Shown: positions 5,478 through 59,324, counted from the first letter of the stretch. The stretch is DNA of 64,000 nt from Lachnospiraceae bacterium (GCA_024681775.1 JAILAF010000022.1:80-64079), one strand, 5' to 3'. The notes: a model not told the origin generated them from the sequence alone. Translations and numbers: made by a program.

Positions 5478-5517
5478 AGCGCATTTCTTCATCCTAAGAC
5501 GCAGGGATGCGCTTCGC
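5478..5517. repeat. Short intergenic hairpin element between cheC and cheD
   Basis: agcgcat (5478-5484)/atgcgct (5507-5513) arms; contains aagacgcag and gcttcgc, both seen in other intergenic elements. Confidence 0.55.
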
Positions 5518-5557
5518 CGGTCCGGTTATCCTGCAGTTGTCTGGTAGCTGGTAGTCG

Positions 5558-6181
5558 TTAAACAGGCATACCCAATGCGCCAAGGATCTTCTGATAAGAG
5601 TCGATATCGGGCACGAGGATAAAGTATCCGTCGATCTCCACCTCATCAAAGAACTGAGACTGGATCATGAGGATATTGTCTCCGTAGATACCGAACTCCA
5701 CAGCGGGTACGCTGAGGATTGCGCCGGCCATATCAACGGTCAGTGCCGGCGGGGAGGGATAAATGCACAAATTGGTCAGGGTGGACAGGGAGTTCAGGTA
5801 AGCACCGGTAATGATGTTACCGATCTCCTTCATGGCGGAGAGCTCCATCTCGGAGAACTCCTCACTTTCGGGATTGCCCATACCCATCATCACCTTGTTG
5901 ATCAGGTGCTTTGCACTCTTCTGCTCTACCAGGAACAGCATGCTCCCGGTGATATCACCCTCGACGCCGAGGAACACACCTACCATGATCTGTTCCTCGC
6001 CGCCCATGGCCTGGCCGACCTCGTTGAACTCTAGGAGCTCGACCTGGGGGACATGCATGTCCACCTTGGTCCCAAGCATCTGGGACAAGGCGGTCATGGC
6101 ATTCCCGGCACCGATGTTTCCGATTTCCTTCAGAACATCGAAATAGGTCTCTGTTACCTTCTCAAGTGTTAATTCACCCAT
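5558..6181 (-). CDS. cheC: CheY-P phosphatase CheC
   Basis: DVLKEIGNIGAGNAMTALS and SAMKEIGNIITGAYLNSL CheC repeats. Confidence 0.96.
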   Translation of the reverse strand: MGELTLEKVTETYFDVLKEIGNIGAGNAMTALSQMLGTKVDMHVPQVELLEFNEVGQAMGGEEQIMVGVFLGVEGDITGSMLFLVEQKSAKHLINKVMMGMGNPESEEFSEMELSAMKEIGNIITGAYLNSLSTLTNLCIYPSPPALTVDMAGAILSVPAVEFGIYGDNILMIQSQFFDEVEIDGYFILVPDIDSYQKILGALGMPV

Positions 6182-6194
6182 AGGAGATCCTCTT

Positions 6195-6701
6195 TTAATT
6201 GTCTTCCAGGTTGATGACGGACAGGTCCAGCAGGGAGATCAGCTGATCTCCGTTCTTGCCGACGCCGCTGACGTAGATAGGGCGATCGCTTCTGCCGTCA
6301 TGGGATACTTTTTCGATCTGGTCCACAGCGAGCTTTACGACTTCCTTGACCTCGTCGACGATGACGCCGACGCTGCCCTCCTCCGGATCCACTTTCAGGA
6401 TGAGGATACGGCTGTCTCTGGTGATCTCGTCAGCCTCCAGGCCCATCTTCAGGCGCAGGCTCATGACGGGAATGACTTCACCTCTCAGATTGATGACGCC
6501 CTTCAGGTACTCGGGTACCTTGGGGACTCTGGTCACATGCTGCATACGAACGATGTTGTCGATAAAGTTGATATCGATGCCGTATTCCTCATCTCCCAGA
6601 CGGATCACGATATATTGAAGCATTTCGGTAACAATCTTGGTCTCATCGCCGTCTGCGGGCAGATTGGCGAGATTTCCACTGGTATTAGATAACTGTTCCA
6701 T
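6195..6701 (-). CDS. cheW: Chemotaxis coupling protein CheW
   Basis: FRLGDEEYGI-like segment and TRVPKVPEYLKGVINLRGEVIPV. Confidence 0.97.
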   Translation of the reverse strand: MEQLSNTSGNLANLPADGDETKIVTEMLQYIVIRLGDEEYGIDINFIDNIVRMQHVTRVPKVPEYLKGVINLRGEVIPVMSLRLKMGLEADEITRDSRILILKVDPEEGSVGVIVDEVKEVVKLAVDQIEKVSHDGRSDRPIYVSGVGKNGDQLISLLDLSVINLEDN

Positions 6702-6714
6702 GAATTACTCCTCC

Positions 6715-8829
6715 TTATAACAAAGCGTTGACATCCAGGATCAGTGCAACTTCACCGTCGCCGAGGATGGTGGCACCGCTGATGAATTTAGCATGCTTGA
6801 TGTACTTGCCAAGGGACTTGATGACGATCTCCTGCTGGCCCATCAGCTCGTCGATGATGAGGCCGGCCATCTTATCGCCCTTCTTTACGATAACGACTAC
6901 CATTGCGCCGTCGTCGCTTGCTTTGCTTTCATTCTCAAGCACTTTGTTCAGGCGGATCAGAGGGATCACGGTACCGCGGAGGTTGATGACTTCCTCGTTC
7001 TGAACGTACTTGATGTCGGAGTTGTGAATGGTCTCGATGGTCTCGATGGAAGCCAGGGAGATGGCGTATTTCTCGCCGCCCACAACAACCATCAGGGACT
7101 GGATGATGGCCAGGGTCAGAGGCAGGCGGATGGTCCAGGTGGATCCCACGCCCAGCTGGCTCTTGACGCTGACTTCACCGCTGAGGGCTTCGATGTTGGA
7201 ACGGACCACGTCCAGACCAACGCCTCTGCCGGAGATGTCGCTGACCTTCTTGGCGGTGGAGAAGCCGGGCAGGAACAGCAGGTTGATGATCTCCTGCTCG
7301 TTCATGGTAGCTGCCTGCTCGGGAGTGATGATACCGCGCTCGATGGCCTTGCTCTTAACGATCTCGGGATCGATTCCGTTACCGTCATCTCTCACCTGGA
7401 TGATGACGTTATTGCCCTCCTGGAATGCATCCAGGAAAATGGATCCTACGGGAGGCTTACCGCGCTCTGCACGGACCTCTGCGCTCTCCAGACCATGGTC
7501 TGCGGAGTTACGCAGCAGATGCATCAGAGGATCGCCGATCTGGTCCACCACAGTACGGTCCAGCTCGGTGTCTTCACCGGTCATGTACAGCTCCATCTTC
7601 TTATTCAGGGACTTGGAAAGATCTCTGATCATACGAGGGAACTTGCTGACGGTGCTCTCGATGGGCACCATTCGAACCTTCATGACGGACTCATGCAGGT
7701 TGGTGGTAACGCTCTCGAGGTACTCGATCTGCTCGTTGAATGAAGCGGAGTTGGTATTGCCGGAAGCGTTGTTGCCGGTAGATGCGGAAACAAGGCTGTT
7801 CTTTGCAATGATCAGCTCGCTGACCAGGTTCATCAGGCTGTCCAGCTTCTCGATGTCCACACGGATGGTCTTGGTGGCGATGGGCTTGGATGCCTTCTTG
7901 TCGTTGTGTTTTGCGGGTGCTGCGGATGCAGCTGCGGGAGCGGGTGCGGTGGTGGCAGCGGCTGCGGGTGCTGCGGATACGCTTGCCTCCTCTGCAGCGG
8001 GTGCTGCTTCCTCTTCCACATCGGCTGTCTTGATCTTGTCGAAGTCAAGGGGTGCGCCGGTGACCTTGGCGATCTCGGAGACTGCGGATGCGGCTGCGAT
8101 CAGCTCCTCCACGGGAGCGTCGCTGGCAACCACCAGAGTAAAGTCGAGATCGAACTTCTCGTCCTCGATGTCCTGGGTCGGAGGATCGGATACCAGGATC
8201 TCGCCCTTCTCCTCCAGAGCCTTCAGTACCAGGAATGCACGGGCTGCCTTCAGCACGCAGTCCGCATTGATCTCGACGTTCAGACCGTAGACCTTCTTGC
8301 CGGACTTTAAGACTTCCTGCATCACACTGACCTGGCTCTCGTCAAAGGCGATATGGTTCCACTTCTCACCGTCTGCTGCGGAAGCGGCTGCCTCGGGAGC
8401 TGCCTCCTTGGGTGCCTCTGCTGCAGGTGCGGGAGCTGCGCCGCCCTTGGAATTACGGATCTCGTTCAGCTTCTTGATGATGGGCTCGTTGTCATTGGTA
8501 CCCTCATCGGAAGTGTTGCGGATATTATCGGTATACTCCTGGAGTGCATCGAGGCACTGGAACAGAGTGTCGATCATATCGGGCATCACTTTGATGGCGC
8601 CGGTACGGACGTCAGAGAACACGTTCTCCATGTCATGGGTCAGAGCCTGCATTCTCTTGTAGCCCATGGTGCCTGCCATGCCCTTCATGGAATGTGCGGC
8701 ACGGAAGATCTCGTTCACGGTGTCCATATCGTCCGGATTCTGTTCCAGATTCAGGATCTGCGTGTTGAGATTCTGCAAATGCTCGTTTGTTTCGTCGAGA
8801 AAGATCTCAAGATATTGGCTGACATCCAT
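6715..8829 (-). CDS. cheA: Chemotaxis histidine kinase CheA
   Basis: Hpt IFRAAHSMKGMA, P2 domain, HLLRNSADHG, DDGNGID, GRGVGLDVV, C-terminal CheW-like domain. Confidence 0.98.
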   Translation of the reverse strand: MDVSQYLEIFLDETNEHLQNLNTQILNLEQNPDDMDTVNEIFRAAHSMKGMAGTMGYKRMQALTHDMENVFSDVRTGAIKVMPDMIDTLFQCLDALQEYTDNIRNTSDEGTNDNEPIIKKLNEIRNSKGGAAPAPAAEAPKEAAPEAAASAADGEKWNHIAFDESQVSVMQEVLKSGKKVYGLNVEINADCVLKAARAFLVLKALEEKGEILVSDPPTQDIEDEKFDLDFTLVVASDAPVEELIAAASAVSEIAKVTGAPLDFDKIKTADVEEEAAPAAEEASVSAAPAAAATTAPAPAAASAAPAKHNDKKASKPIATKTIRVDIEKLDSLMNLVSELIIAKNSLVSASTGNNASGNTNSASFNEQIEYLESVTTNLHESVMKVRMVPIESTVSKFPRMIRDLSKSLNKKMELYMTGEDTELDRTVVDQIGDPLMHLLRNSADHGLESAEVRAERGKPPVGSIFLDAFQEGNNVIIQVRDDGNGIDPEIVKSKAIERGIITPEQAATMNEQEIINLLFLPGFSTAKKVSDISGRGVGLDVVRSNIEALSGEVSVKSQLGVGSTWTIRLPLTLAIIQSLMVVVGGEKYAISLASIETIETIHNSDIKYVQNEEVINLRGTVIPLIRLNKVLENESKASDDGAMVVVIVKKGDKMAGLIIDELMGQQEIVIKSLGKYIKHAKFISGATILGDGEVALILDVNALL

Positions 8830-8873
8830 AATTCATTCCTCCATTCCATTCCCCGAACACCGGAGAACTGTTA

Positions 8874-9956
8874 TCAGCTGTTTAAACCTACCTGCATGAC
8901 GATCTCGGCAGCGACGTTATCCAGAGGAACCACCTGATCGGAAAGACCCGCCTTGGCCACGGCTTTTGGCATGCCGTAGATGGTGCTGGTCTCTTCGTTC
9001 TGGGAGATGACATGAACCTTTTTGACTTCTTTCAGGTTCTTGATGCCCTCCGTGCCGTCCGCACCCATACCCGTCAGCACCACACACACGATCTTGTCGA
9101 ACTTGGAAGTCCGCAGCGATTCGTACATGTAGTTCGCACAGGGCTTAACGCCCTCACGAATGGGTTCGTCCGTGTAATGAATGGTGTACCCGCCTGCGCC
9201 GGACACGACATTCATATGCATTCCGCCCTTGGCCAGATATACCGTCCCGCATTCGAGGCGGTCGCCTTCCTGGGCCTCCACCACATGCACCTCACTCATG
9301 GAGTTCAGACGCTCCGCCAGGGAAGCGGTGAATCCTTTGGGCATGTGCTGCACCAGTACCACCGGTGCATCCAGATTGGCCGGGAGTCTGGGGATCACGG
9401 ACTGGAGTGCCTTCGGGCCGCCGGTGGAGCTGGCCATGGCCACGATCTTGCGTCCTGCGATCCTGGTAGAGGACTTCTGAAGGATTCCGATGAACTTCTT
9501 GTTCTCTTCCTTCTTCTCGGCGACTCTGGCAGGAGAATCGAATACCGGAGGACGGCTGATGACAACGCCGTGGAGGATCCGCAGGAAGTTCTGCTGGAAG
9601 ACTCCGTCGCGGCAGCTGTTTGCCGAGTCCGGCTTGTGAATGAAGTCCAGGGCTCCCAGTTCCAGCGCGTCCAGAGTGGTCTGTGCGCCTTCCTTGGTAT
9701 CCGTGCTGGCCATCATCACACGAACATGGATGCGATATTTGCGAAGCTCTCCCAGCAGCTGCAGTCCGTTCATCTTGGGCATGTTCACGTCCAGGACCAC
9801 TGCGTCGTACTTGTTTCTGCTGAGGAGATCGAAAGCTTCCAAACCGTTCACGGCCTGGTCTGCCACTTCGAAATCATCATCTGAATCGATTATATCACGG
9901 AGCACTCTTCTCATGAGTGCAGAGTCATCTACAAGTAAGATTTTTTTCTTAATCAT
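8874..9956 (-). CDS. cheB: Chemotaxis methylesterase CheB
   Basis: Receiver domain (LLVDDS, LDVNMP); catalytic SSTGGP, QHMP, LTGMGADG. Confidence 0.97.
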   Translation of the reverse strand: MIKKKILLVDDSALMRRVLRDIIDSDDDFEVADQAVNGLEAFDLLSRNKYDAVVLDVNMPKMNGLQLLGELRKYRIHVRVMMASTDTKEGAQTTLDALELGALDFIHKPDSANSCRDGVFQQNFLRILHGVVISRPPVFDSPARVAEKKEENKKFIGILQKSSTRIAGRKIVAMASSTGGPKALQSVIPRLPANLDAPVVLVQHMPKGFTASLAERLNSMSEVHVVEAQEGDRLECGTVYLAKGGMHMNVVSGAGGYTIHYTDEPIREGVKPCANYMYESLRTSKFDKIVCVVLTGMGADGTEGIKNLKEVKKVHVISQNEETSTIYGMPKAVAKAGLSDQVVPLDNVAAEIVMQVGLNS

Positions 9957-10012
9957 TTATAAACTCCTCCCACAAGTATTCTTCACCGATCCGTTTCTTT
10001 CGGATCCCCTCA

Positions 10013-10732
10013 TCAGCTCCTGCTGCGGTTTTTCCGCTCTTCCTCAAAGATGAACTGGATGATCTCCTCTCTCTGGGCTTCGTTCATATTGACATACTGG
10101 ACCCGGTGCTCGTAGGTGTCGGGACGGTTCTCCAGGGCGCGGACCGCCAGAACCTTGCCCACCACCTCGTAGTGCCGTCTCTCGCCGCCCTTCAGCAGAT
10201 CGTAGCTGCAGTAGAGCATACTGCCGGGCTCATATTTCTGGTTGGACATAAAGCGGAGTCCGCCGCCGGAGATGTCCACGATGACGCTGCGCTTGATGGG
10301 CATGTTGGGCTGCAGGATCATGGGATGGCTTTCTTCCAGAGACTTGATCTCCTCCTCCACCAGGGTGCGGGAGCACATCTCCAGCGCGCAGCTGAAGCGG
10401 TAGTACTCTCTGCGCTGGTACTTCCGCAGATTGCTGGTGAGTTCCACCACCACCAGGTAGAGGTTGTTGCTCTTGTAGCGGTCGATGACCGTGGCAAAGC
10501 ACTGGAACAGACCGGTCTTGGTATAAAAGATCAGGTTGAATTCCGCGTCCACGGGGAGCAGGATGAGCTTCGTCTGCTCCATGGGCATGAGGATCTCCAG
10601 CTGATCATCGGAAAGGATGGCCGAGACCTTGGAAGTATAGACCTTTCCGTCCTTGCCGGCCTTGGATCCCATGGCGTGTTCCACGCTGGTCAGGTCGACT
10701 CTGTCGCTCTCTCTGATAAAGTTCGATAACAT
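10013..10732 (-). CDS. PilZ-domain flagellar brake protein (YcgR/DgrA-like)
   Basis: c-di-GMP motifs QRREYYR and DISGGG, with an N-terminal YcgR-like domain. Confidence 0.93.
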   Translation of the reverse strand: MLSNFIRESDRVDLTSVEHAMGSKAGKDGKVYTSKVSAILSDDQLEILMPMEQTKLILLPVDAEFNLIFYTKTGLFQCFATVIDRYKSNNLYLVVVELTSNLRKYQRREYYRFSCALEMCSRTLVEEEIKSLEESHPMILQPNMPIKRSVIVDISGGGLRFMSNQKYEPGSMLYCSYDLLKGGERRHYEVVGKVLAVRALENRPDTYEHRVQYVNMNEAQREEIIQFIFEEERKNRSRS

Positions 10733-10797
10733 ACGCTTCTCTCTTTCCGCCTTCCACAGTTGTCGTTGGCAGTCGTTCTATTTTTATGACGCTTTCG

Positions 10798-11667
10798 TCA
10801 TTTTCTTCCGAGGATGTGTGAGAAAAATGCAGCCATACCTCTGTTCTGCACCGGCTTCTCCCCTTCTGTCTCCAGGAGCTGCTCCGCGATGCGCTGGTAG
10901 GCCAGGCTGGCCCGGGCTGCGGGATGCTGCAGGGAGACGGGCACCTGCTGCATCACGGCTTTTTGCAGCTGCACGTCGTAGGGCACACTGCCCAGATAGG
11001 TCATGGGGAGCTTCAGGAAGCGCTGCACCACAGAGTTCAGCTTCCGGAACAGGGTCTGTCCCTCTTCCTCCTTCTCCACACGGTTGGCGATCATGCGGAT
11101 CCTGGTCTCCTCCCGGCGGAATCTGGGATGGCGGCTCAGGGCTTTCAGCAGGGAGTAGGAATCGGTGATGCTGGTAGGCTCCGGCGTGGTGATGAGGAGC
11201 ACTTCGCTGCTGGCCACCAGGAATTCCATGACTGCGTCGGAGATCCCTGCGCCGGTGTCCACGATGATGATGTCGGCGATGGAGTCCAGCTCCGTCAGGT
11301 TCCGGATGATGTAATCCAGGTAATCACGGCTCAGGTTGGACATGCCGGCGATGCCGGAGCCGCCCGAAATGAAGCCCACTTCCCCGGGGCCCCAGGTGAT
11401 GATATCCTTGATGTTTTTCCCTTGATAGATGAGATCGTAGAGGTTGTGCTTGGGCACCGCCCCAAACATGATCTCAATGTTTGCCAGTCCGAAATCCGCG
11501 TCCAGGATGATGACGCGCTTTCCCATTTTCTTGAAATGAATGGCAAGATTGATGGCGGTATTGGACTTGCCGACCCCTCCCTTACCGCTGGTAATGGTAA
11601 AAACTCTCGCGAGAGGTCTGGCCTGCTGGCCCGCCTTTATGATCCGAAGAGATTCTGCCTGGTCCAT
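10798..11667 (-). CDS. flhG: MinD/FlhG family flagellar number regulator
   Basis: Start MDQAESLR (11667); deviant Walker A SGKGGVGKS, DADFGLAN, VDTGAG, TTPEPTSITDSY. Confidence 0.95.
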   Translation of the reverse strand: MDQAESLRIIKAGQQARPLARVFTITSGKGGVGKSNTAINLAIHFKKMGKRVIILDADFGLANIEIMFGAVPKHNLYDLIYQGKNIKDIITWGPGEVGFISGGSGIAGMSNLSRDYLDYIIRNLTELDSIADIIIVDTGAGISDAVMEFLVASSEVLLITTPEPTSITDSYSLLKALSRHPRFRREETRIRMIANRVEKEEEGQTLFRKLNSVVQRFLKLPMTYLGSVPYDVQLQKAVMQQVPVSLQHPAARASLAYQRIAEQLLETEGEKPVQNRGMAAFFSHILGRK

Positions 11668-11707
11668 GAAACAACTCCCCCGTTCCTTTCCCGATATGTG
11701 ATACCAA

Positions 11708-11802
11708 AGCATTCAATGCATGCTGCATGTGCGCTCTCTTATTGACTCGCTGCGCTCCTCAATAAGCATCGTTTCGCAGAATAAGTTTTCAACTTATTCT
11801 GC
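11708..11802. repeat. Cluster of intergenic hairpins between flhF and flhG
   Basis: cttattga (11738-45)/tcaataag (11759-66) around gctgcgc; perfect gcagaataagtt-ttc-aacttattctgc (11776-11802); catgc-t-gcatg. Confidence 0.85.
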
Positions 11803-13200: not shown

Positions 13201-13201
13201 G

Positions 13202-15250: not shown

Positions 15251-15279
15251 GCTGTCCTCCTTTCATCTGAAATGGGTAA

Positions 15280-17168: not shown

Positions 17169-17440
17169 TATTTATGAACATAGTAGCTGAAGGTGTGCCA
17201 GAGCTCCTGTGTGAACTCCACGATGGAGCTCATCATCCAGTTGCCGAGAAACATCAAAGTCAAAAAAATGCCCAAAAGCTTCGGAACGAAGGTCAGGGTC
17301 TGCTCCTGAATGGAGGTGACCGTCTGGAAGATACTGACCAGGAGACCGATAGCCATGGACACCAGCAAAATAGGCAGAGCACATTTCAAAATGACATAGA
17401 GTCCGCTTTGGATCATGTCCGCAACCGCTTCGGTAGTCAT
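17168..17440 (-). CDS. fliQ: Flagellar export protein FliQ
   Basis: Start MTTEAVADM; GLLVSIFQTVTSIQEQTLTFVPK. Confidence 0.97.
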   Translation of the reverse strand: MTTEAVADMIQSGLYVILKCALPILLVSMAIGLLVSIFQTVTSIQEQTLTFVPKLLGIFLTLMFLGNWMMSSIVEFTQELWHTFSYYVHK

Positions 17441-17475
17441 ATGTGCTCTCCTCTCCTGCATATTTCCCCGAAAGG

Positions 17476-17528
17476 GCGGGGATCCCCCGCTCCGGCGGAT
17501 CAGGCCGGGGCGCAGAATTCATTCCGCG
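17476..17528. repeat. GC-rich hairpin cluster between fliP and fliQ
   Basis: gcgggg-atc-ccccgc (17476-90); cgcagaat-tc-attccgcg (17511-28). Confidence 0.55.
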
Positions 17529-19197: not shown

Positions 19198-20487
19198 TTA
19201 TTTTATGATCTCTGTTACTCTGATTCCGAAACTTTCTTCGATCACGACGACCTCGCCTCTCGCAACGAACTTGCCGTTGACCAGGACGTCGATGGGCTCA
19301 CCGGCAATGCGGTCGAGCTCTATGATGGTGCCCGGAGCGAAATTCAGGATCTCGGAGATGGACTTCGTGGTCCGTCCGAGCTCTACCGTAACCTCCAGGG
19401 GTACATCCATGATAAGGCCGATGTTCTCGCCGCCCTGTACATTGTTCAGCGCACCGTTGAAGGACTGGAAGGATGCGGGCTGGACATTGACGGGCTGCTG
19501 CATCGGCATGCCGTACATCGGCATCTGCATCGGCATACCCTGCATGGGCATACCCTGCATGGGCATTCCCTGCATCGGCATACCCTGCATGGGCATTCCC
19601 ATGTTGGGATCCATCGTGCCGGGCATGGGCTGCGTCATCTGCGCCGAAGGATCTGCGAAGGCTGTGGGCGCCGGCGCCGGAGCAGGTGTGGGTGCCGGTT
19701 CGGGAGCGGGTGCCGCTCCGCCTGTCTGCTGGTTGATGAAGGTCTCCACCAGCTTCCGGGCAAATTCCACCGGATACAGCTGCATGATGGTGGAGTCCAC
19801 CAGATCATCGCCGATCTGCATCCGGAACTGGATCTTGACGAAGGTTCCTCCCAGGAAGGGTGAGATCTCTGCTCCGGATTTGTACTGTGCCAGATCCAGA
19901 AGGGAGGAATCCGGAGGCGAGATGTCGATCATGGTGGCCAGCATGGTGGACAGGGACGTTGCCGCCGCTCCCATCATCTGGTTCATAGCCTCCGAGATCG
20001 CACTCAGGTGCAGCTCGGAAAGTTCTCCCTCCGTATTGGTACCGTCACCGCCCATCATCAGGTCGGTGATGACCTTCACGTCATGTTCCTTCAGCACCAG
20101 GATATTGGTACCGTCCAGACCCTTGGTGTACTTGATCTGAATGAAGACGCAGGGCTTTTCGTAGTTTTCGAGAATGGACTCCCACTTTGCCAGGGATACG
20201 ATCGGGGTGGTGATGTTTACCTTGCGGTTGACCAGCGAGTAGAGTGTGGTGGCCGAGGAGCCCATACTGATATTGGCTACCTCTCCGATCGCATCCTTCT
20301 CTACATCCGACAGCAGATCGTCTCCGCCGTCAATGGCGGGCGTGTCAATCAGGTATGCATCCTTGGGCGGTTCAGGTTGTGCAGCCATCGCTTCCGTATA
20401 GCTGCTCAGATCGGGCGCCTCATCTCCGGACAGATCCATGCCGCTTAGGAGGGCATTGATCTCGTCCTGGGATAGCATTCCATCCAT
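19198..20487 (-). CDS. fliY: Flagellar switch phosphatase FliY (CheC-like plus FliN domain)
   Basis: LSQDEINALL; DAIGEVANISMG and SAISEAMNQMMG; C-terminal SpoA domain DVPLEVTVELG. Confidence 0.96.
   Translation of the reverse strand: MDGMLSQDEINALLSGMDLSGDEAPDLSSYTEAMAAQPEPPKDAYLIDTPAIDGGDDLLSDVEKDAIGEVANISMGSSATTLYSLVNRKVNITTPIVSLAKWESILENYEKPCVFIQIKYTKGLDGTNILVLKEHDVKVITDLMMGGDGTNTEGELSELHLSAISEAMNQMMGAAATSLSTMLATMIDISPPDSSLLDLAQYKSGAEISPFLGGTFVKIQFRMQIGDDLVDSTIMQLYPVEFARKLVETFINQQTGGAAPAPEPAPTPAPAPAPTAFADPSAQMTQPMPGTMDPNMGMPMQGMPMQGMPMQGMPMQGMPMQMPMYGMPMQQPVNVQPASFQSFNGALNNVQGGENIGLIMDVPLEVTVELGRTTKSISEILNFAPGTIIELDRIAGEPIDVLVNGKFVARGEVVVIEESFGIRVTEIIK
19525..19599 (-). repeat. Five 15-bp in-frame repeats encoding (GMPMQ)5 in FliY
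   Basis: ctgcat(c/g)ggcat(a/t)cc x5 on the plus strand. Confidence 0.95.
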
Positions 20488-35035: not shown

Positions 35036-35443
35036 GAAAGACCACAGCTTGCTCAGGGCATGAAACATACATCGCGATTTAGCAAATGAGCGATTATGTT
35101 TTATGCACGGAGCAAGCGACACTAAGTTCAGAGTCTGCTTATGTCCATTCAGCTCATTTTCTAAACACGAAAGTCCGCAGCTTGCTTTGGGCATGAAACA
35201 CACATCGCGATTTAGCAAATGAGCGATTATGTTTTATGCACAGAGCAAGCGACACTAAGTTCAGAGTCCGCTTATGTCCATTCAGCTCATTTTCTAAACA
35301 CGAAAGCCCGCAGCTTGCTTTGGGCATGAAACATGCATCGCGATTTAGCAAATGAGCGATCATGTTTTATGCACGGAGCAAGCAACACTAAGTTCAGAAT
35401 CCGCTCAGTTCAAAAATGCAAAACGCTCATTTGCTAAATCGCG
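35036..35443. repeat. 133-bp tandem repeat (about 2.8 copies) with long internal hairpins and a terminal inverted copy of its 20-bp core
   Basis: Copies 35036-35168, 35169-35301, 35302-35405. Core cgcgatttagcaaatgagcg at 35073, 35206 and 35339; its reverse complement at 35424-35443. Confidence 0.97.
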
Positions 35444-35474
35444 TTTTACATTTATGAACTTCGCTGTGCTCAAC

Positions 35475-36900: not shown

Positions 36901-36948
36901 AAAAATAAAAAGGATCTACTTTCGCTTTCGCTTCCGTAAATCCTTTTT
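36901..36948 (-). terminator. codY terminator hairpin with a GCGAAAGC-containing loop
   Basis: Minus strand aaaaaggatttac-ggaagcgaaagcgaaa-gtagatcctttttattttt. Confidence 0.75.
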
Positions 36949-39934: not shown

Positions 39935-40023
39935 TCCCTGTTCCTCCGGGTGTGCCCGTTTCCGGGTTGTTCAAAAGTGCATATATCATTGATGACACGA
40001 ATTGCTCCGTTTCTTCGAAACTC

Positions 40024-40337
40024 TCGCAATTCTGCGAACATTCGGAATCCGCGAATTTACTGCGTAAATTGCTTCTTCCTCATGTTCGGGCGGGTCATAA
40101 ACCCTCAAAGCGATTCATGCAAGCATGATCGCATTTCGGTTTTTGCCCCTATCATCATATAGTAGAAATTGTTACATCGAGACAAGACTATACAACAAAA
40201 TTTTTTAGGATGCAAGTGCGGATTCATAATGCGTATCGCTCGGCGATACGCCCGCGCGAGCGCAGTGTTGCGCAGCGACAATTCACCATTCTGCGCGAGT
40301 CGCATCCATGCGGAGCAGTTATTTTTTGCATTTATGC
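40024..40337. repeat. Mosaic of short hairpins between tRNA-Glu and topA
   Basis: aatttac-tgc-gtaaatt (40054-70), gcgattcatgc-aa-gcatgatcgc (40110-32), gcgtatcgc-tcg-gcgatacgc (40231-51), tgttgc-gca-gcgaca (40266-80), ttattttttgcat-tt-atgcaaaaaaataa. Confidence 0.75.
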
Positions 40338-40367
40338 AAAAAAATAACCCGTACCTTTCGGTACGGG
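40338..40367 (-). terminator. tRNA-Glu terminator
   Basis: cccgtacc-gaaa-ggtacggg followed by ttattttttt on the minus strand. Confidence 0.9.
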
Positions 40368-40371
40368 CTCG

Positions 40372-40443
40372 CAGCTGGTAGGGGAATCGAACCCCTGTTT
40401 CCGCCGTGAGAGGGCGGCGTCTTAACCGCTTGACCAACCAGCC
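40372..40443 (-). tRNA. tRNA-Glu (anticodon CTC), CCA not encoded
   Basis: GGCTGGT/ACCAGCT acceptor stem; D-arm GGTCAAGCGGTTAAGAC; anticodon arm CCGCC-CT-CTC-AC-GGCGG; T-loop GGTTCGATTCC; 72 nt. Confidence 0.97.
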
Positions 40444-47823: not shown

Positions 47824-47878
47824 TCATTTGAGAGAAATCTCATCCGCAATTTCTCATGTCACGGAGGAAGGAAAATCC

Positions 47879-49411: not shown

Positions 49412-49449
49412 GCAGGTAGGAATGAGACGTTCCGCAAACAGAAAAACCA

Positions 49450-49458
49450 TGATATAAT
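49450..49458 (+). promoter_or_regulatory. Extended -10 promoter element downstream of comM
   Basis: Perfect TGaTATAAT in an otherwise unannotated intergenic region. Confidence 0.5.
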
Positions 49459-49516
49459 CCTGATCAAAGATGGATCCTCATGGTAACGGGGTCCCTGAAG
49501 CGGCCCTCTCGAAACA

Positions 49517-49636
49517 GTGACAACCAATGAGAAAGGGCCCGAGGAGGTACGGGAATTAAATCAGGAGATCCGCAAGCATTCCGACGGTCTCATTGATGAG
49601 ATCCTTCCCGGCAAGGAGAATGAAGCAAGGAAATAA
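49517..49636 (+). CDS. Candidate 39-aa small protein
   Basis: GTG-TTNEKGPEEVRELNQEIRKHSDGLIDEILPGKENEARK-TAA; below the ORF-track cutoff; no clear SD. Confidence 0.35.
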   Translation: MTTNEKGPEEVRELNQEIRKHSDGLIDEILPGKENEARK

Positions 49637-49664
49637 GTCTTTCCCGGCAATCAACAGGGAATAG

Positions 49665-49700
49665 AAAAAACAGGCAGCCCGGAAATCCGGACTGCCTGTT
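49665..49700. terminator. Terminator hairpin downstream of pilT, possibly bidirectional
   Basis: aacaggcag-c-ccgg-aaat-ccgg-a-ctgcctgtt with a T6 tract on the minus strand. Confidence 0.85.
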
Positions 49701-49721
49701 CTATTTCATAGAAAACGGTGA

Positions 49722-51882: not shown

Positions 51883-51920
51883 AGAGCCCCCTCTTTGCAA
51901 TACATAAAATTCCAAAAAAT

Positions 51921-51950
51921 ATTATAAAGGAATTATCACAAAATCACAAA
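51921..51950 (-). promoter_or_regulatory. Sigma-A promoter of the HD-pilT unit with a tandem 8-bp repeat
   Basis: TTGTGA-N17-TATAAT; atcacaaa x2 at 51935-51950 overlaps the -35. Confidence 0.65.
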
Positions 51951-51985
51951 TAAAATCTAAAAAAATCGGAAAAACTTGTGAGGGT

Positions 51986-53128: not shown

Positions 53129-53153
53129 CTTCTGCGATTTTTCCTCACTCAGA

Positions 53154-54962
53154 TCATTTGTCCTCGTCCAGCTTCAGCACACTCATAAAAGCAGCCTGAG
53201 GGATCTCCACATTGCCGATCTGGCGCATGCGCTTCTTGCCCTCCTTCTGCTTTTCCAGAAGCTTCTTCTTACGGGTGATATCACCGCCGTAGCACTTGGC
53301 AAGCACATCCTTCCGCATGGCCTTCACTGTCTCCCGGGCGATGATCTTGCCGCCCACAGCCGCCTGAATGGGGATCTCAAAAAGGTGCCTGGGGATCTCT
53401 TCCTTCAGGCGCTCGCACATCCTTCTGCCGCGCTCGTAGGCGGAGTCCGCATGGACGATGAAGGAAAGAGCGTCCACCTCCTCGTGGTTGATGAGAATGT
53501 CCAGCTTCACCAGACTGGAGCGCTCATAGCCCTTCAGTTCATAGTCGAAGGAAGCGTAGCCCCGGGATCTGGACTTTAACGCATCGAAGAAATCATAGAT
53601 GATCTCATTTAAGGGCAGCTCGTATTTTAACAGCGCGCGCCCCGCCTCGATATACTCCATGCTCACGTACTTGCCCCGCCGCTCCTGGCAGAGCTCCATA
53701 ATGGATCCCACAAAGTCCTTGGTCACCATGATCTCAGCGTTCACAATGGGCTCCTCCATGTAATCGATCATGGTGGGATCCGGCAGGTTGGAGGGGTTGG
53801 TGAGGCTCATGCTCTCGCCGTTGGTGCAGTAGACATGATACACAACGCCGGGGGCGGTGGTCACCAGGTCCAGATTGTATTCCCGCTCCAGGCGCTCCTG
53901 GATGATCTCCAGATGGAGCAGTCCCAGGAATCCGCAGCGGAAGCCGAAGCCCAGGGCCACGGAGGTCTCAGGCTCGTAGTTCAGGGAAGCATCGTTCAGC
54001 TTTAATTTTTCCAGCGCATCTCTCAGGTCCGGATACTTGGCGCCGTCTGCGGGATACATGCCGCAATAGACCATGGACTGGACCTTCTTGTAGCCCGGCA
54101 GGGCTTCAGCGCAGGGGCGCTCCTCCTCGGTGACGGTGTCGCCCACAGCGGTCTCTCCCAGGTTCTTGATGGAAGCGGTGATGTAGCCCACCATGCCTGC
54201 GGAAAGCTCTTCGCAGGGGATCATCTGGCCGGGGCCGAAATACCCTACCTCCACCACATCCTCCACAGCGCCGGTGGCCATCATGCGGATCTTCGTTCCG
54301 CGGCGCACGGTACCTTCCATGATGCGGCAAAAAACGATGACTCCGCGGTAGGAATCGTAGAGGGAGTCAAAGATCAGCGCCTTTAAAGGGGCATTGGGGT
54401 CCCCCTTGGGTGCAGGGATCTTGTGTACGATGGCCTCCAGCACCTCGTCGATGCCGATGCCGTTTTTCGCAGAGATCAGGGGAGCGTCCTGAGCCTCGAT
54501 GCCGATGACATCCTCGATCTCGTCAATGACCCGCTGGGGCTCAGCGCTGGGCAGATCGATCTTGTTGATAACAGGGAACACATCCAGATCGTGATCCAGT
54601 GCCAGATACACATTGGCCAGGGTCTGGGCTTCGATCCCCTGAGCGGCATCCACCACCAGAATGGCACCGTCGCAGGCGGCGAGGCTCCTGCTCACCTCAT
54701 AGTTAAAATCCACATGCCCCGGGGTGTCGATGAGGTTAAAGACATACTCCTCCCCGTCCTTCGCCTTGTAAATGGTGCGGACCGCCTGGGCCTTGATGGT
54801 GATGCCTCTCTCCCGCTCCAGGTCCATATTGTCCAGGACCTGCTCCTGCATCTCCCGGCTGGTGAGCAGACCGGTGCTCTCGATGATCCGGTCCGCCAGG
54901 GTGGATTTCCCGTGGTCGATGTGCGCCACGATGCAAAAATTTCTGATTTTACTCTGATCCAT
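53154..54962 (-). CDS. lepA: Translation elongation factor 4 (LepA)
   Basis: Start [10 protein letters not shown] (54962); [41 protein letters not shown]. Confidence 0.98.
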
Positions 54963-54996
54963 AAAAGTCTTTCCGTTTCTATCTCTTAGTGCTATA

Positions 54997-55064
54997 ATCT
55001 CTGACGGTCGACCCCCTGCAGATTTGCAAAACGGGTCCTTCCGGCAGGGGACTCCCGCAGAGAT
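54997..55064 (-). promoter_or_regulatory. 68-nt stem-loop in the lepA 5' leader
   Basis: Nested arms atctctg/cagagat, cgg/ccg, cccctgc/gcagggg, starting just downstream of a TATACT -10 (55072-77). Confidence 0.55.
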
Positions 55065-55147
55065 ATCAGCAAGTATACATTCTAACATGAACGTGGCGAA
55101 TCCGAAAGCAAAATCATGAAGTTTTGCGTTTTTCCGAAAAGAATCTC

Positions 55148-55176
55148 TTGACAATCAAAAAGAAAGTGTATAGATT
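55148..55176 (+). promoter_or_regulatory. Sigma-A promoter of rpsT
   Basis: TTGACA-N17-TAGATT. Confidence 0.75.
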
Positions 55177-55255
55177 AATAGAGTATGTGTGCACCGGCTC
55201 CGTGTCGGCGGGTGTACATGCGGCTAACCATTTTGTAAGGATGGAGGTGTAAACT

Positions 55256-55519
55256 TTGGCTAACATTAAATCCGCTAAGAAGAGAGTTCTCGTCAGCAGA
55301 GCAAATGCAGAGAGAAATAAGTCGATCCGCTCCGGCGTGAAGACCGCTATGAAGAAGGTCTATTCCGCAGTTGAGGCCGGCGATAAGGCTGCAGCTACCG
55401 CTGAGCTTGCGAATGCTACCAAAGTGATCGAGATGGCTTGCACCAAGGGCGTTTACCACAAGAACAACGCAGCCCGTAAGCTTTCCCAGATTGCCAAAGC
55501 AGTAAACACGCTCGCTTAA
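55256..55519 (+). CDS. rpsT: 30S ribosomal protein S20
   Basis: TTG start after GGAGGT; MANIKSAKKR...HKNNAARKLS. Confidence 0.98.
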   Translation: MANIKSAKKRVLVSRANAERNKSIRSGVKTAMKKVYSAVEAGDKAAATAELANATKVIEMACTKGVYHKNNAARKLSQIAKAVNTLA

Positions 55520-55539
55520 TCTCTATACATAAACATTCT

Positions 55540-55574
55540 TAACGCCCCTTACCGTCATGAGGGGCGTTATTTTT
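55540..55574 (+). terminator. rpsT terminator
   Basis: taacgcccct / aggggcgtta stem followed by ttttt. Confidence 0.88.
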
Positions 55575-55585
55575 GTTCGCAACGA

Positions 55586-55658
55586 GCCAAAGATCCGACA
55601 TTCATGCTTGCATGAATGTCGGATCTTTGGCGACTGCGGTAAACCGAAAGACGCAGTC
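55586..55658. repeat. Perfect 46-bp palindrome plus an adjacent hairpin
   Basis: gccaaagatccgacattcatgc-tt-gcatgaatgtcggatctttggc (55586-55631); gactgcg...cgcagtc (55632-55658). Confidence 0.95.
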
Positions 55659-55676
55659 TTGAGGTTTGCGAAAAGG

Positions 55677-55730
55677 GAAAAAAATCCCGAACCCTCTCCC
55701 ATTGCGGAAGGGTCCGGGATCTTCTTTTTT
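55677..55730. terminator. Terminator hairpin of the Zn-ribbon gene
   Basis: A-tract, atcccgaaccct...agggtccgggat imperfect stem, T-tract. Confidence 0.7.
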
Positions 55731-55770
55731 CGGGGATGGAGCAGATCGGTGACGGAACCGGCCGCGCCGC

Positions 55771-56958
55771 CTAATTCTGCTTCGGCGGCAGGGGCTTTTT
55801 GTCCAGCCGCTTGGTAATGAAGCGGTCCGAGGACAGGTTTACCTTCACGGAACTGTCTGCCACATAGGTCATGGCCGTGGTTGTGTTGCCGCTCATTCTC
55901 TGACGCAGGTTCGTTCCCGCAAAGATACCGCCGGCGATAAAGAAACCGATGATGGCTGCGGGAATGCTGTTCATAGCAAAATACAGGATCAGAGCCAGGA
56001 CGATACCTGCCAGGGCGGAGCACAGGAGCACCTTCGTCTTGTCCACGGGGGTGTCGCCCACGATCTTGCCGGTCTGACCGTTGATGTAGAAAGGATAGTG
56101 CTGGTCGTGGTAGATGTAATCATACTTCCAGACGGGCATCAGGCCAAACTGCACATCCCTGGACTTCACATCCGTGCGGCGGTTCACCGCATTGTTCTCC
56201 TGATAATTGCACTCGGGGCCCTTGGAAATGGAGTCGTTCAAAATGGTGTTGGCACTGGACTCCATCAGCTTTTTCGCCCGCTCCTCCAGCGCTGTGGAGG
56301 ACTGGTTGTACTGCTCCGCATAGAAGCCGCTCAGCAGTCTGCTGTCATAGGCTACCGTATCGTCATAGTGAAAGGGCGCCAGCAGGTCCATGGTGCTGTC
56401 CGGCATCGCGTCGGAAGCATCCACGGGAAGCTTGCGGAAGTTCACGCCCAGATTTCTGTGGACGTCGTAGTCGGAACGCTCCGCATACTCGAACTTCTCA
56501 TCCTTCCAGGTTTTCACATGGGTGCAGACACCGTCAAAAATGAGCTCCGTGTCATAATCATAGAACCAGAAGGGCACATACCATCCCTGCATGCCGTCCA
56601 GCTTGGCATCGGACACCAGGTCCTTCGGGACGAATTTCATCTTGCCGAAGCGCTCCCGGATCTTCGTCTTTACCTCTTCCATGCCCACACGGAAGGGTGC
56701 GATCATCCTGGGCTGATAAGCACCTTCCAGACGCTCGTCCAGGATCAGATAGTTGTCACAGAACGGGCACTTCAGCGCGGAAGTGAACTTCTCCAGAGGC
56801 AGCTCGCCTCCGCAGTTCGGACACAACAACAGATTGGCCGATTCCGAAGGAATGTAAGGTTCCTCGCAATCCGTTCCTTCACAGGAAGGACAGAACATCG
56901 TTCCCTTCTCGGGACTGTAGACAGCGTTACCGCCGCAGTTCTTACAACGATAGATCAT
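55771..56958 (-). CDS. Double zinc-ribbon (TFIIB-like) membrane protein
   Basis: Start MIYRCKNCGG (56958); CKNC/CPSC and CPNC/CPFC; WYVPFW; LMPVW...INGQTGKIVG; two C-terminal TM helices. Confidence 0.85.
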   Translation of the reverse strand: MIYRCKNCGGNAVYSPEKGTMFCPSCEGTDCEEPYIPSESANLLLCPNCGGELPLEKFTSALKCPFCDNYLILDERLEGAYQPRMIAPFRVGMEEVKTKIRERFGKMKFVPKDLVSDAKLDGMQGWYVPFWFYDYDTELIFDGVCTHVKTWKDEKFEYAERSDYDVHRNLGVNFRKLPVDASDAMPDSTMDLLAPFHYDDTVAYDSRLLSGFYAEQYNQSSTALEERAKKLMESSANTILNDSISKGPECNYQENNAVNRRTDVKSRDVQFGLMPVWKYDYIYHDQHYPFYINGQTGKIVGDTPVDKTKVLLCSALAGIVLALILYFAMNSIPAAIIGFFIAGGIFAGTNLRQRMSGNTTTAMTYVADSSVKVNLSSDRFITKRLDKKPLPPKQN

Positions 56959-57057
56959 AAGCCTTGCCCCTTTCGTAACAAAATATTTAATCATATTTTA
57001 ACAAATCGGAAACGCCAAAACAATGGGCAATCTGAGCACAGGGGGAGCTGACACGGG

Positions 57058-57086
57058 TTGTTTATTGAATATCAGGTTGATATAAT
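57058..57086 (+). promoter_or_regulatory. Sigma-A promoter of the solute-binding protein gene
   Basis: TTGTTT-N17-TATAAT with extended TGn. Confidence 0.75.
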
Positions 57087-57116
57087 AGAGTCACTATTTG
57101 ATACGGAGGAAACTGA

Positions 57117-58349
57117 ATGAGGTTAAGACGCGTTCTTTCGAGTATTCTTACCCTGTCCATAGGCATATCGGTCCTCTCCGGCTGCGGAAGCGTTCAGAGC
57201 CAGGTCGATGCCACCCATACCAAAAGCTTAACGCTGGCGCTCCGTGACGGCACTTATTCGGATGTCATCCGATCCTGTCTGCCCGCTTTCGAAGAGCAGA
57301 CCGGGATCACTTGCGAAGTCGTTAATTTCTCCGAGGATGATCTGCACAATCTCCTTTTGGATGAGGGGGGCAGGAGTTCGCAATATGATCTGTGCATGGC
57401 GGATGCCTCCTGGACCGCACAGCTCTATGCCGAAGGGGTCGTCGCGGATCTGTCCGAGCTGGGATACAGCATCGACAATGATATCATCCCCGCCACAACC
57501 GCCATCTCCTACTATGGCGACCATCTCTATCTGGTACCCTATTTCGGCAATGTGACCGTGCTCCTCTACAACAAGGATCTGATCAAAAGCAGCGGCGTGG
57601 ATCTGAATTCAGACTCCTCCCTGGCAGATGTGATGGAAGTCGCCAAATACGCCGAGAGCATCGGAAAGGCCGGATTCCTTTACAGAGGCGACACCGAGAA
57701 CAATCTGGTGGTGGATTTCCTGCCGATATTGCTGGCCTACGGCGGCTGGGTCGTGGATGAGAACAACCGCCCTACCGTCAACACGCCGGTATTTGTGGAA
57801 GCCATGAACGCTTATCTGAATCTCATCGCCACCGGAGAAGCAATGGACAAATCCACGCTCATCGCATCCATTGAGAACGGGGAAGGCGCCATGGCCATCG
57901 GATGGCCCGGCTGGTACACTCCCACGGAGTTGTCTCCGGCGAACTACTGCTCCATCTCCGGCAAGCTGGATGAAAATTCCATCTCCTATAATGCCAATGT
58001 CTACGGCATTTGGATGCTGGGCATCTGTGGAGACAGTTCCAAAAAGGAAGCCGCCGCACAGCTCCTGACCTACCTGATGGATAAAAACGTTCAGAAAGAA
58101 ACCATCGCCATCGGCGGCGTCCCCTGCAGATATTCCAGTCTCCGTGATGAGGCAGTGCTGGCCCAGTACCCGCAATACGATGCCATCTGTGATGCGTTAC
58201 AGGGCGGAACCTATCGTCCCACGCTGGAAAAATGGCCGGAATTCTACACCATTCTGGGAAATGCAATGCGCCAGATCATAGACGGCGAGATCAGCGTGGA
58301 GAACGGCCTGAATCAGGCACAAAAAGAGCTGGAGAACACCATCCGATAA
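57117..58349 (+). CDS. ABC-type extracellular sugar-binding lipoprotein
   Basis: Signal peptide with lipobox LSGC; YLVPYFGNVTVLLYNKDL; GEGAMAIGWP; GIWMLGI; no permease genes adjacent. Confidence 0.88.
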   Translation: MRLRRVLSSILTLSIGISVLSGCGSVQSQVDATHTKSLTLALRDGTYSDVIRSCLPAFEEQTGITCEVVNFSEDDLHNLLLDEGGRSSQYDLCMADASWTAQLYAEGVVADLSELGYSIDNDIIPATTAISYYGDHLYLVPYFGNVTVLLYNKDLIKSSGVDLNSDSSLADVMEVAKYAESIGKAGFLYRGDTENNLVVDFLPILLAYGGWVVDENNRPTVNTPVFVEAMNAYLNLIATGEAMDKSTLIASIENGEGAMAIGWPGWYTPTELSPANYCSISGKLDENSISYNANVYGIWMLGICGDSSKKEAAAQLLTYLMDKNVQKETIAIGGVPCRYSSLRDEAVLAQYPQYDAICDALQGGTYRPTLEKWPEFYTILGNAMRQIIDGEISVENGLNQAQKELENTIR

Positions 58350-58366
58350 AGCGATAACCCTTAAGA

Positions 58367-58407
58367 CATGAAAAAAGCTTCCGGTTTTCACCGGAAGCTT
58401 TTTCATG
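58367..58407. terminator. Bidirectional terminator between the SBP gene and tpiA
   Basis: aaaaagcttccgg-ttttca-ccggaagcttttt between convergent genes. Confidence 0.92.
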
Positions 58408-58417
58408 TAGCAGAATC

Positions 58418-59167
58418 TTACTGATAGTTGACGATCTTGCCGAAGTCGGGCTTCAGGCTCGCACCGCCTACCAGGCCGCCGTCGATGTCGGACTGTGCGA
58501 ACAGCTCGGCTGCGTTGCCTGCGTTGACGGATCCGCCGTACTGGATACGAACGGATGCTGCGGTAGCATCATCATAAATCTCTGCGATGCAGTCGCGGAT
58601 ACCCTTGCAAACCTCCTGTGCCTGCTCGGTGGTAGCGGTCTTGCCGGTACCGATAGCCCAGATAGGCTCGTAAGCGATCACCATGGAAGCAACCTGATCA
58701 GCGGAAACGCCCACCAGATCGGACTTGATCTGGAAACGGATCCAGTCCATGGTCACGCCCATCTCTCTCTGCTCCAGGCTCTCACCGCAGCAAAGGATGG
58801 GGGTCAGTCCTGCTTCGAAGGCCTTCTTGACCTTCTTGTTCAGCAGTGCATCGTCCTCCTTGAAGTAATCTCTTCTCTCGGAGTGGCCCAGGATGACGTA
58901 CTGAACGCCTGCATCCTTCAGCATTGCAGCGGAGATCTCTCCGGTGAATGCACCCTTCTCCTCGAAATACATATTCTCAGCGCCTACGGCAACATTGGTG
59001 CCCTTCACAGCTTCCACAACGGGAATGATGTCGATGGCGGGTACACAGTAGACTACATCAACGGAATCGCTCTGTACGAGGGGCTTCAGCTCCTCGGCAA
59101 GCTTCACTGCCTCGCTGGGAGTCATGTTCATCTTCCAGTTGCCGGCTACGATCTTTCTTCTTGCCAT
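58418..59167 (-). CDS. tpiA: Triosephosphate isomerase
   Basis: Start [14 protein letters not shown] (59167); [31 protein letters not shown]. Confidence 0.98.
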
Positions 59168-59194
59168 ATTTTTTCTCCTATTTTTCTCGATATC

Positions 59195-59324
59195 TACGGA
59201 TTTCTTCGCTTCGCTTTCGAAATCCGTACGTTTTCGCAATATCTGTTCCGCCTTCGGCGGGATATTGCTCAAACGTTTCGTTCGCCAAAGACGCAGTATC
59301 TTCTGCTAGCAGAGATACTGCGTC
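59195..59324. repeat. Three consecutive hairpins between pgk and tpiA
   Basis: tacggatttc/gaaatccgta around ttcgcttcgc; gcaatatc..ccgcc-ttc-ggcgg-gatattgc; gacgcagtatc(t)tctgc-ta-gcagagatactgcgtc. Confidence 0.9.

Follow-up and report, generated by a model that had tools for sequence, protein, structure and literature searches.

A stretch of 64,000 nucleotides from a Lachnospiraceae bacterium (GCA_024681775.1, JAILAF010000022.1:80-64079), called the window here at its full length, contains intergenic spacers at 3.6, 5.5, 11.7, 36.9, 40.0-40.3, 55.6 and 59.2 kb that carry short hairpins. The original prediction, made from the sequence alone, took all seven spacers as one undescribed family of elements resembling repetitive extragenic palindromes (REP) and marked by GNA triloops. 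Our analysis instead finds, with good confidence, three unrelated things: copies of the Clostridiales-1 RNA (Rfam RF01699) that form a dispersed, mobile-like repeat, local hairpin insertions, and the intrinsic terminator of codY. Clostridiales-1 is a known four-stem RNA with strong covariation, not a new family. In this lineage it also behaves as a discrete dispersed repeat with its stem P1 as the boundary; between genes, copies have been acquired or lost, cut short, or multiplied in tandem.

The three copies in the window and the two signals next to them are as follows.

39990-40157, minus strand: Clostridiales-1 copy 1 (RF01699, 122.7 bits, E 1.7e-27, model positions 1-166)
59188-59343, minus strand: Clostridiales-1 copy 2 (RF01699, 72 bits)
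55578-55706, plus strand: Clostridiales-1 copy 3, degenerate (RF01699, 39.1 bits, E 4.7e-5)
40157-40185, minus strand: putative promoter of copy 1, abutting P1 (TTGTCT, 17 nt, CTATAT), read from the sequence
55540-55575, plus strand: intrinsic terminator of rpsT from a terminator scan, directly upstream of copy 3 and kept in the related contigs L139 and L140

Copies 1 and 2 pass the RF01699 gathering score of 48 bits. A family profile used with nhmmer recovers just copy 1 in the window, and copies 2 and 3 require the covariance model. Permissive Rfam searches of 3.4-12 kb and 34.9-40.6 kb gave no more copies and no other credible family.

Clostridiales-1 is common in Lachnospiraceae. The window copies are 129-168 nt long, and P1 closes a junction of P2, P3 and P4. 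Copy 1 is full length (P1-P4) and lies 55 nt upstream of the topA start codon. Copy 2 fills the pgk-tpiA intercistronic spacer, starting 1 nt past the pgk stop codon TGA and ending 20 nt before the tpiA ATG. Both are sense to these genes, with no terminator between copy 1 and topA and none with copy 2. The unconstrained minimum free energy fold of copy 2 reproduces the four-stem shape (z-score of -11.3). Copy 3, directly after the rpsT terminator, keeps P1 and has a perfect 22-bp P2 with a CUUG loop, a reduced P3 and an unrecognizable P4; its fold (z-score of -8.5) is dominated by that P2. The conserved unpaired nucleotides of P3 and P4 are AUGAG..GAAG / CGGA..CGAA and GGGAG / CGGAG. Copy 1 has the exact core pattern; in copy 2, UGAG and CGAA remain along with some of the other positions; copy 3 is mostly without these nucleotides.

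The Clostridiales-1 motif was catalogued in 2010 and scored as a likely RNA that is not cis-regulatory (Weinberg 2010, Genome Biol 11:R31, PMC2864571), so that the core of the supposedly undescribed element had been described already. The four stems, the conserved loops and the occurrence in gut Clostridiales/Lachnospiraceae are the same in that description, and the present organism is from ruminant gut. Rfam lists Clostridiales-1 as a small RNA (sRNA) gene. Full-text literature searches found no functional work on it after 2010, and neither these searches nor the 2010 description gave any mention of insertion polymorphism, stop-codon adjacency, lack of terminators, or truncated and variant units.

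Homologues were collected by scanning 185,579 species genomes with the P3 core pattern, which gave at least 119 loci, mostly of Lachnospiraceae; a profile search of the listed loci gave 120 matches. Counts of homologues, copies, loci and arrays below are among the matches listed. An alignment was made of 59 full-length homologues from other genomes. MAFFT aligns P1 and the base of P2 poorly, and RNAalifold on this alignment recovers the tip of P2, P3 and P4, to which the covariation figures refer.

These stems are paired in 94.1% of cells versus 72.6% in column shuffles, and pairing drops to 29-43% when partners are slid by 1-3 columns from the true register. Double-sided changes number 350 against 94 expected and are seen at 24 of 29 pairs. 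The covariation score is 0.546, compared with 0.156 for the shuffles and at most 0.10 for the slid controls. As an example, one pair is CG in 21 homologues, GC in 19, AU in 10 and UA in 9, and is broken in none. On the modeled Rfam RNA strand, G-U pairs outnumber A-C pairs 27 to 11. The covariation together with this G-U excess modestly favors selection on the modeled strand, most simply as RNA, and a single-stranded DNA (ssDNA) form would be compatible too. The element is a covarying four-stem fold of 130-170 nt rather than the short REP-like ssDNA hairpin that had been proposed.

Some copies deviate from the Rfam model. In many copies from several genera (L037, L087, L021, L015, L099 and L078), an extra hairpin, GGNGUCAAAA-loop-UUUUGACNCC, directly follows P1, and it is also present at L146:2603-2627 on the Butyrivibrio fibrisolvens plasmid pNP243. 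This hairpin lies outside the Rfam model and is not in the window copies; it mimics the base of P2 and may pair with the P2 5′ strand. Tandem units of about 90-110 nt that have the P3 core without P2 or P4 (L042, L105, L117 and L128) share the form AUGAG..GAAG-hairpin-CGGA..CGAA, which suggests P3 as the functional core of Clostridiales-1.

In plasmid and phage collections, Clostridiales-1 was found without annotation once on a plasmid, the pNP243 copy, and on five contigs from human faeces, likewise unannotated, that had been deposited as ‘Bacteriophage sp.’ records. The 14 matches to the P3 core pattern in viral contigs were rejected as chance matches, none being Clostridiales-1 by Rfam. Copies in two bins labeled Prevotella (L039 and L084) are near-identical to Enterocloster copies, for which contamination in binning is the most likely reason rather than true hosts. 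Bins labeled Bacteroidales (L053) and Treponemataceae (L028 and L097) carry other Clostridiales-1 variants.

The distribution of the copies is that of a repeat. About 25 of about 85 loci have head-to-tail arrays of 2-3 units on one strand; at a spacing of 145-170 nt, the units are too close for each to have its own promoter or terminator. The isolate Muricomes intestini DSM 29489 carries two copies that are 98% identical but lie in unrelated flanks, and the similarity begins exactly at P1. A metagenome-assembled genome (MAG) of Enterocloster has copies of about 97% identity at two different loci. In metagenome X1, the P4 segment of copy 1 has a depth of 186 compared with 6.8 in the flanks, and contigs break at the edges of this segment. 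P1 (6-8 bp) constitutes both ends of the element; its sequence varies among copies, and its pairing is maintained.

The copies sit at gene boundaries. Counted from the first base of P1, the stop codon of a long upstream open reading frame (ORF) on the same strand starts between -7 and +4 nt in 16 of the 57 copies, and the 33 positions preceding -7 hold just four such stop codons. The abutting upstream ORFs are housekeeping genes, groEL, ruvA, rpsO, upp and purH among them. Downstream, a same-strand ORF usually starts 25-150 nt after the array, and the genes there are functionally unrelated (uvrB, pfk, ruvB, serS, rnc, trpD, fliM and others). An intrinsic terminator follows within 90 nt in only 2 of 56 arrays. 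Between co-directional genes, 23 copies are sense and 12 antisense by crude ORF calls.

The 5′ edge is conserved as (T)ATGAT(A) after A+T-rich sequence. This edge is also the 5′ strand of P1, and copy 2 begins otherwise, with GCGATAT. A sigma-70 promoter common to all copies was considered and rejected; no -35 element is conserved upstream, and only the (T)ATGAT edge and the A+T-rich flank are kept. A good TATAAT lies 3-5 nt upstream in perhaps a third of copies. For copy 1, TTGTCT-17-CTATAT may be the promoter, judging from its sequence, which is identical in L144 and was not called by a consensus promoter scan.

Filled and empty sites were then compared, as had been proposed, and both states were found among close relatives. 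Orthologous contigs were found via homologues of FapA, TpiA and TopA. A single MAG, Lachnospiraceae Tb.RUG.395, is the source of both contig L139 and contig L144; its TpiA and TopA are 99% and 97% identical to those of the window, respectively. All four Clostridiales-1 sites in the region differ between the window and close relatives.

pgk-tpiA spacer: window, 177 nt with full copy 2; L139, 78 nt with the 3′ part only; L140-143, 37 nt, empty
5′ of a 395-aa gene (55771-56958): window, empty, spacer of 122 nt; L139, full copy of 121 bits; L140-143, empty
Convergent spacer behind rpsT: window, one degenerate unit (copy 3); L139, two tandem units; L140, none, 91 nt
5′ of topA: window, full copy 1; L144, the first 72 nt, identical, with 109 nt deleted; L145 (TopA 74% identical), none

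In the pgk-tpiA spacer of L139, the 99 missing nucleotides were deleted between GATAT repeats. The 37-nt spacers of L140, L141 and L143 have no Rfam match, and that of L142 is the same by alignment. In metagenome contigs from other community members, pgk is joined to tpiA by about 38 unrelated nucleotides. The L139 copy 5′ of the 395-aa gene has collinear flanks and is inserted directly after TATGAT, the empty window site reading ATATGAT|TAAATATTTTG and the filled L139 site ATATGAT[element]TATATAATCTG. The unit of copy 3 is doubled at L139:13549-13895 relative to 55520-55770 of the window, between genomes whose TpiA proteins are 99% identical. Because the distant relatives are empty at all four sites, the simplest reading is that several gains of Clostridiales-1 occurred within a shallow clade and were followed by decay.

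The copies could instead be vertically inherited RNA genes or cis leaders, with the differences made by deletions and local duplications and with no mobility. Two of the four polymorphic sites are plain deletions (99 nt in L139 and 109 nt in L144), the window copies are old and divergent, and the covariation indicates a selected RNA function; Rfam has the family as an sRNA gene. However, vertical inheritance must meet the emptiness of all four sites in the outgroup (L140-143 and L145), which implies several gains, and the full L139 copy at a place where the window is cleanly empty between collinear flanks. It also leaves aside the 98% identical unlinked copies in an isolate, the frequent arrays and the unrelated neighbor genes. 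We therefore hold this alternative unlikely.

Gain and loss of a dispersed repeat has well-known counterparts. Repeats of the miniature inverted-repeat transposable element (MITE) type include BOX and RUP of Streptococcus pneumoniae, Correia/NEMIS of Neisseria, ERIC of enterobacteria, bcr1 of the Bacillus cereus group and MIRU of Mycobacterium. Like Clostridiales-1, they are 100-200 nt long, occur both dispersed and in tandem in transcribed spacers, at times overlapping a stop or start codon or creating a promoter, have predicted RNA folds and vary in presence between strains. The presence/absence at orthologous sites and the near-identical unlinked copies by which such repeats are recognized are both found for Clostridiales-1. 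On the other hand, Clostridiales-1 is unrelated to them in sequence, the single pair of sites compared here shows no target-site duplication, and the conservation of fold and loops over many genera is much stronger than usual for MITEs.

IS200/IS605-derived palindrome-associated transposable elements (PATEs) and TnpB omega-RNA scaffolds are likewise hairpin-bearing and non-autonomous and are inserted without duplication next to a short motif, for which the (T)ATGAT-like 5′ edge could be the counterpart here. Unlike those, Clostridiales-1 has no adjacent tnpA or tnpB that we found, the abutting upstream ORFs being housekeeping genes, and its ends pair with each other as P1, an arrangement other than that of IS200/IS605.

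We turn to the GNA triloops, which had been put forward as the signature of one family over all seven spacers. Every loop that had been named is present: GCGCAGC at 11749-55 (minus), GCGAAGC at 5511-17 and 59208-14 (both minus), GCA loops at 40061-63 (minus), 40272-74 (plus) and 55653-55 (plus), GAA loops at 11788-90 and 59253-55 (both minus), and GCGAAAGC at 36924-31 (minus). The spacers are indeed expanded relative to close relatives. The GCA and GAA loops at 40061-63, 40014-16, 59253-55, 59208-14 and 55653-55 are the terminal loops of P3 or P4 in Clostridiales-1; in copy 1 these are GCA at 40061-63 and GAA at 40014-16.

Triloop hairpins were counted on both strands of the intergenic set (4652 nt, delimited by a codon-model gene map). 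With stems of at least 5 bp, C-GNA-G hairpins number 11 versus 0.2 ± 0.4 in dinucleotide shuffles, and 0 of 300 shuffles reached 11. Of the 11, the tandem array at 3613-3870 accounts for seven and the three copies of Clostridiales-1 together for four. With these four source regions masked, the counts are 8 versus 6.1 in shuffles for stems of at least 2 bp, 2 versus 1.5 for at least 3 bp and 0 versus 0.4 for at least 4 bp. The excess over shuffled controls thus holds for the whole set and vanishes outside its two sources, and the triloop is no family signature. The same applies to mini-hairpins of the d(GCGAAGC) type; the heptamer occurs at two of the sites above (5511-17 and 59208-14), and outside RF01699 and the 3.6 kb array the frequency is that of chance.

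Sharing of sequence modules is also limited to Clostridiales-1. Copies 1 and 3 (40.1 and 55.6 kb) have in common the 16-mer ATTCATGCAAGCATGA, which forms the tip of P2 with its CUUG cap, and AAAGACGCAGT is common to 55.6 and 59.3 kb (copies 3 and 2). Beyond these two, 11- to 13-mers shared among spacers amount to an RBS-like (ribosome-binding-site-like) word and one unrelated 14-mer. The shuffled modules of the original prediction therefore exist within Clostridiales-1 copies and not among the other spacers, whose contents are listed below.

3613-3870, no strand assigned: tandem palindrome array in the sigD/fliA-fapA spacer (periods of 56 and 129 by TRF, Tandem Repeats Finder)
5456-5557, no strand assigned: cheC-cheD spacer, about 100 nt in both the window and L134, the right halves being divergent; L138 has about 15 nt
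11713-11793, no strand assigned: flhF-flhG spacer with two hairpins, 81 nt; L134 has about 28 nt and L138 about 35 nt
40234-40302, no strand assigned: G+C-rich, hairpin-bearing segment of 69 nt, absent from L144 by alignment
36901-36948, minus strand: intrinsic terminator of codY, a 13-bp stem with a loop holding GCGAAAGCGAAAG and a T run

In the 3.6 kb array, 73- and 56-nt units alternate as A, B, A, B. They contain three distinct perfect palindromes in repetition (TTTGGC-GYA-GCCAAA, AATGGC-GCA-GCCATT and GAAGC-GAA-GCTTC), and TGGCGNAGCCA occurs five times, confined to this array. The GNA loops are on the plus strand, antisense to sigD and fapA, and the fold z-scores are -3.6 and -3.3. The sigD-fapA spacer is 288 nt in the window, about 85 nt with one unit and a different hairpin in L134 (about 90% nucleotide identity to the window), and about 64 nt with no palindrome in L138. 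The L134-type variant is present in runs X2 and X4. A 22-mer from the array had no matches in viral contigs, and the array has no Rfam match.

The remaining segments fold at the level of shuffles (z-scores from -1.1 to -1.6): -1.6 and -1.3 for the cheC-cheD spacer, -1.5 and -1.3 for the flhF-flhG spacer, and -1.1 and -1.3 for 40234-40302, which has single-copy depth in metagenome X1. The flhF-flhG hairpins, for which there is no Rfam match, reuse AATAAG/CTTATT, a motif that begins within the stop region of flhF; this suggests that they stem from a local inverted duplication. The codY terminator directly follows the stop codon and is kept in L144 with small changes. Neither the rest of the window nor the fetched loci, about 1.1 Mb in all, contain any of the modules in the non-RF01699 spacers again, and these spacers have single-copy depth in metagenome X1. 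The 3.6 kb array and the segments at 5.5, 11.7 and 40.27 kb are lineage-specific local insertions or expansions, not a family; their most probable origin is duplication in place, slippage or template switching.

A single REP-like ssDNA-hairpin family with C-GNA-G loops, moved to gene ends and terminators by an HUH/Y1 enzyme and present in all seven spacers, is accordingly very improbable. It would account for the overall hairpin excess, for the expansion of every spacer relative to close relatives and for the perfect short palindromes with GNA loops on one strand at 3.6 kb. But the excess is gone once the RF01699 copies and one array are removed, the other spacers share no sequence and none recurs in 1.1 Mb of related loci, and three of them fold at chance (5.5, 11.7 and 40.27 kb) and that at 36.9 kb is a conserved terminator. 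Permissive Rfam searches were blank at 3.6, 5.5, 11.7, 36.9 and 40.27 kb, leaving three loci in the family. The GNA loops of the 3.6 kb array and those of RF01699 are on opposite strands relative to transcription, and no RAYT (REP-associated tyrosine transposase) or IS200-like gene is among the window gene calls, in which not every ORF was searched. REP and bacterial interspersed mosaic elements (BIMEs) of Enterobacteria and Pseudomonas, with their RAYTs, do resemble Clostridiales-1 in being multi-copy, intergenic, near gene ends, co-transcribed, clustered and foldable. Each REP is, however, an imperfect palindrome of only about 35 nt that follows a family consensus and is served by a cognate RAYT, in contrast to four stems over 130-170 nt with conserved unpaired nucleotides, and the short hairpins of the other window spacers share no consensus. 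What survives of the idea of a mobile element at gene ends is Clostridiales-1 itself, which is at gene boundaries in filled, empty, truncated and duplicated states, and not the other spacers.

How the repeat acts may be pictured as follows. Given how seldom a terminator belongs to the element itself, and given the covariation of the stems on the modeled strand, Clostridiales-1 is most likely a co-transcribed RNA module that acts as such or is at least tolerated. Mostly it would be co-transcribed with its neighbors in a 5′ untranslated region or between cistrons, and its role could be that of a cassette for RNA stability, processing or protein binding rather than of a free-standing, trans-acting sRNA. 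Proteins would bind perhaps through the conserved purine-rich loops of P3 and P4. Spread would take place at the DNA level, by machinery encoded elsewhere. In its full form, Clostridiales-1 would be a non-autonomous mobile element of Lachnospiraceae with a selected RNA fold, a portable cassette at stop codons and -10 boxes that forms arrays and turns over between strains; we regard the chances of this full form as evenly balanced.

Also very improbable is a riboswitch-like cis-regulator that senses a ligand or protein and is dedicated to genes such as topA and tpiA, despite the highly conserved purine-rich internal loops (UGAG/CGAA and GAA/GGA), the many loci sense to and close upstream of genes, and the copies with a 3′ hairpin able to pair with the P2 base; the downstream genes have no common function, roughly one copy in three does not share the orientation of the gene downstream, operons that are nearly identical differ in whether they have the element, and the 2010 score was against cis-regulation (PMC2864571). 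Three known structures or roles were also dropped by reasoning only. For the purine-rich internal loops, a K-turn does not fit by size (4x3 and 3x3) and a loop E does not fit by sequence, and a CsrA sponge with two CGGA motifs is disfavored since GGA sits in internal loops.

Several observations weigh against this reading of Clostridiales-1 or limit it. No transposase was found among the window gene calls and their homologues in relatives, in which not every window ORF was searched; no fixed target sequence was found; and there is no target-site duplication at the single clean filled/empty pair (L139 versus the window). Such site patterns could also come from recombination that adds and removes copies, or from old copies having been lost in some lineages and not in others. 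The three window copies are very divergent from each other, and copy 3 alone is below the gathering score (39.1 versus 48 bits). The homologue sample is biased, being found by the P3 core pattern and limited to the matches listed, and a number of MAG labels probably reflect errors in binning. By crude ORF calls, 34 of 54 loci have the element in the orientation of the downstream gene, a weak bias. Rumen metatranscriptome contigs cover copy 1 at 90-95% identity, with essentially zero depth at the adjacent 40142-40345, but these contigs are strand-less and DNA carry-over is possible.

As for its other contents, the window has a flagellar/chemotaxis cluster at 5-36 kb followed by codY, topA, tRNA-Glu, polC and ispG, and then lepA, rpsT, a solute-binding protein gene, tpiA, pgk and gap. 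Its G+C content is about 55%, and the majority of genes are on the minus strand. The nearest sequences in public data come from ruminant guts, as MAGs of Lachnospiraceae and as metagenome contigs; for the exact TpiA and RpsT sequences of the window, a look-up gave no record. Two further genes deserve mention.

4671-4950, minus strand: small membrane-protein gene between cheD and sigD, kept in L134 and missed by the codon model
40346-40443, minus strand: tRNA-Glu(CUC) with terminator, upstream of the copy 1 locus

The apparent gap at 4671-4950 is thus coding and not a spacer. The fliE-fliF spacer (487 nt) contains a 133-nt tandem repeat in three copies with an inverted partial copy (35036-35453); in the close relative L144 this spacer is 105 nt with just a 42-nt seed of the unit, and the repeat has no Rfam family and no recurrence among other loci. 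Two long spacers, 49412-49721 (310 nt) and 61669-61958 (290 nt), have the 14-mer GGAAATAAGTCTTT in common, and the latter includes two copies of a 32-nt direct repeat at 61896-61958. A 15-nt repeat occurs seven times at 19498-19600 in a flagellar switch gene and encodes a Met/Pro/Gly-rich repeat, and a 12-nt repeat in 3.5 copies lies near the window end (63506-63547).

If confirmed, this reading would reclass Clostridiales-1 from an ‘sRNA gene’ to a ‘mobile structured RNA cassette’ and would account for its abundance in gut metagenomes. Filled and empty sites would be usable as strain markers and would serve as natural experiments on mRNA stability and translation in Lachnospiraceae. For 16 years this RNA family, abundant among the gut bacteria of humans and ruminants, has been without an assigned function, and the analysis offers a lead that can be tested. 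If true, a portable Clostridiales-1 cassette would help to make strains of abundant gut bacteria differ in gene expression.

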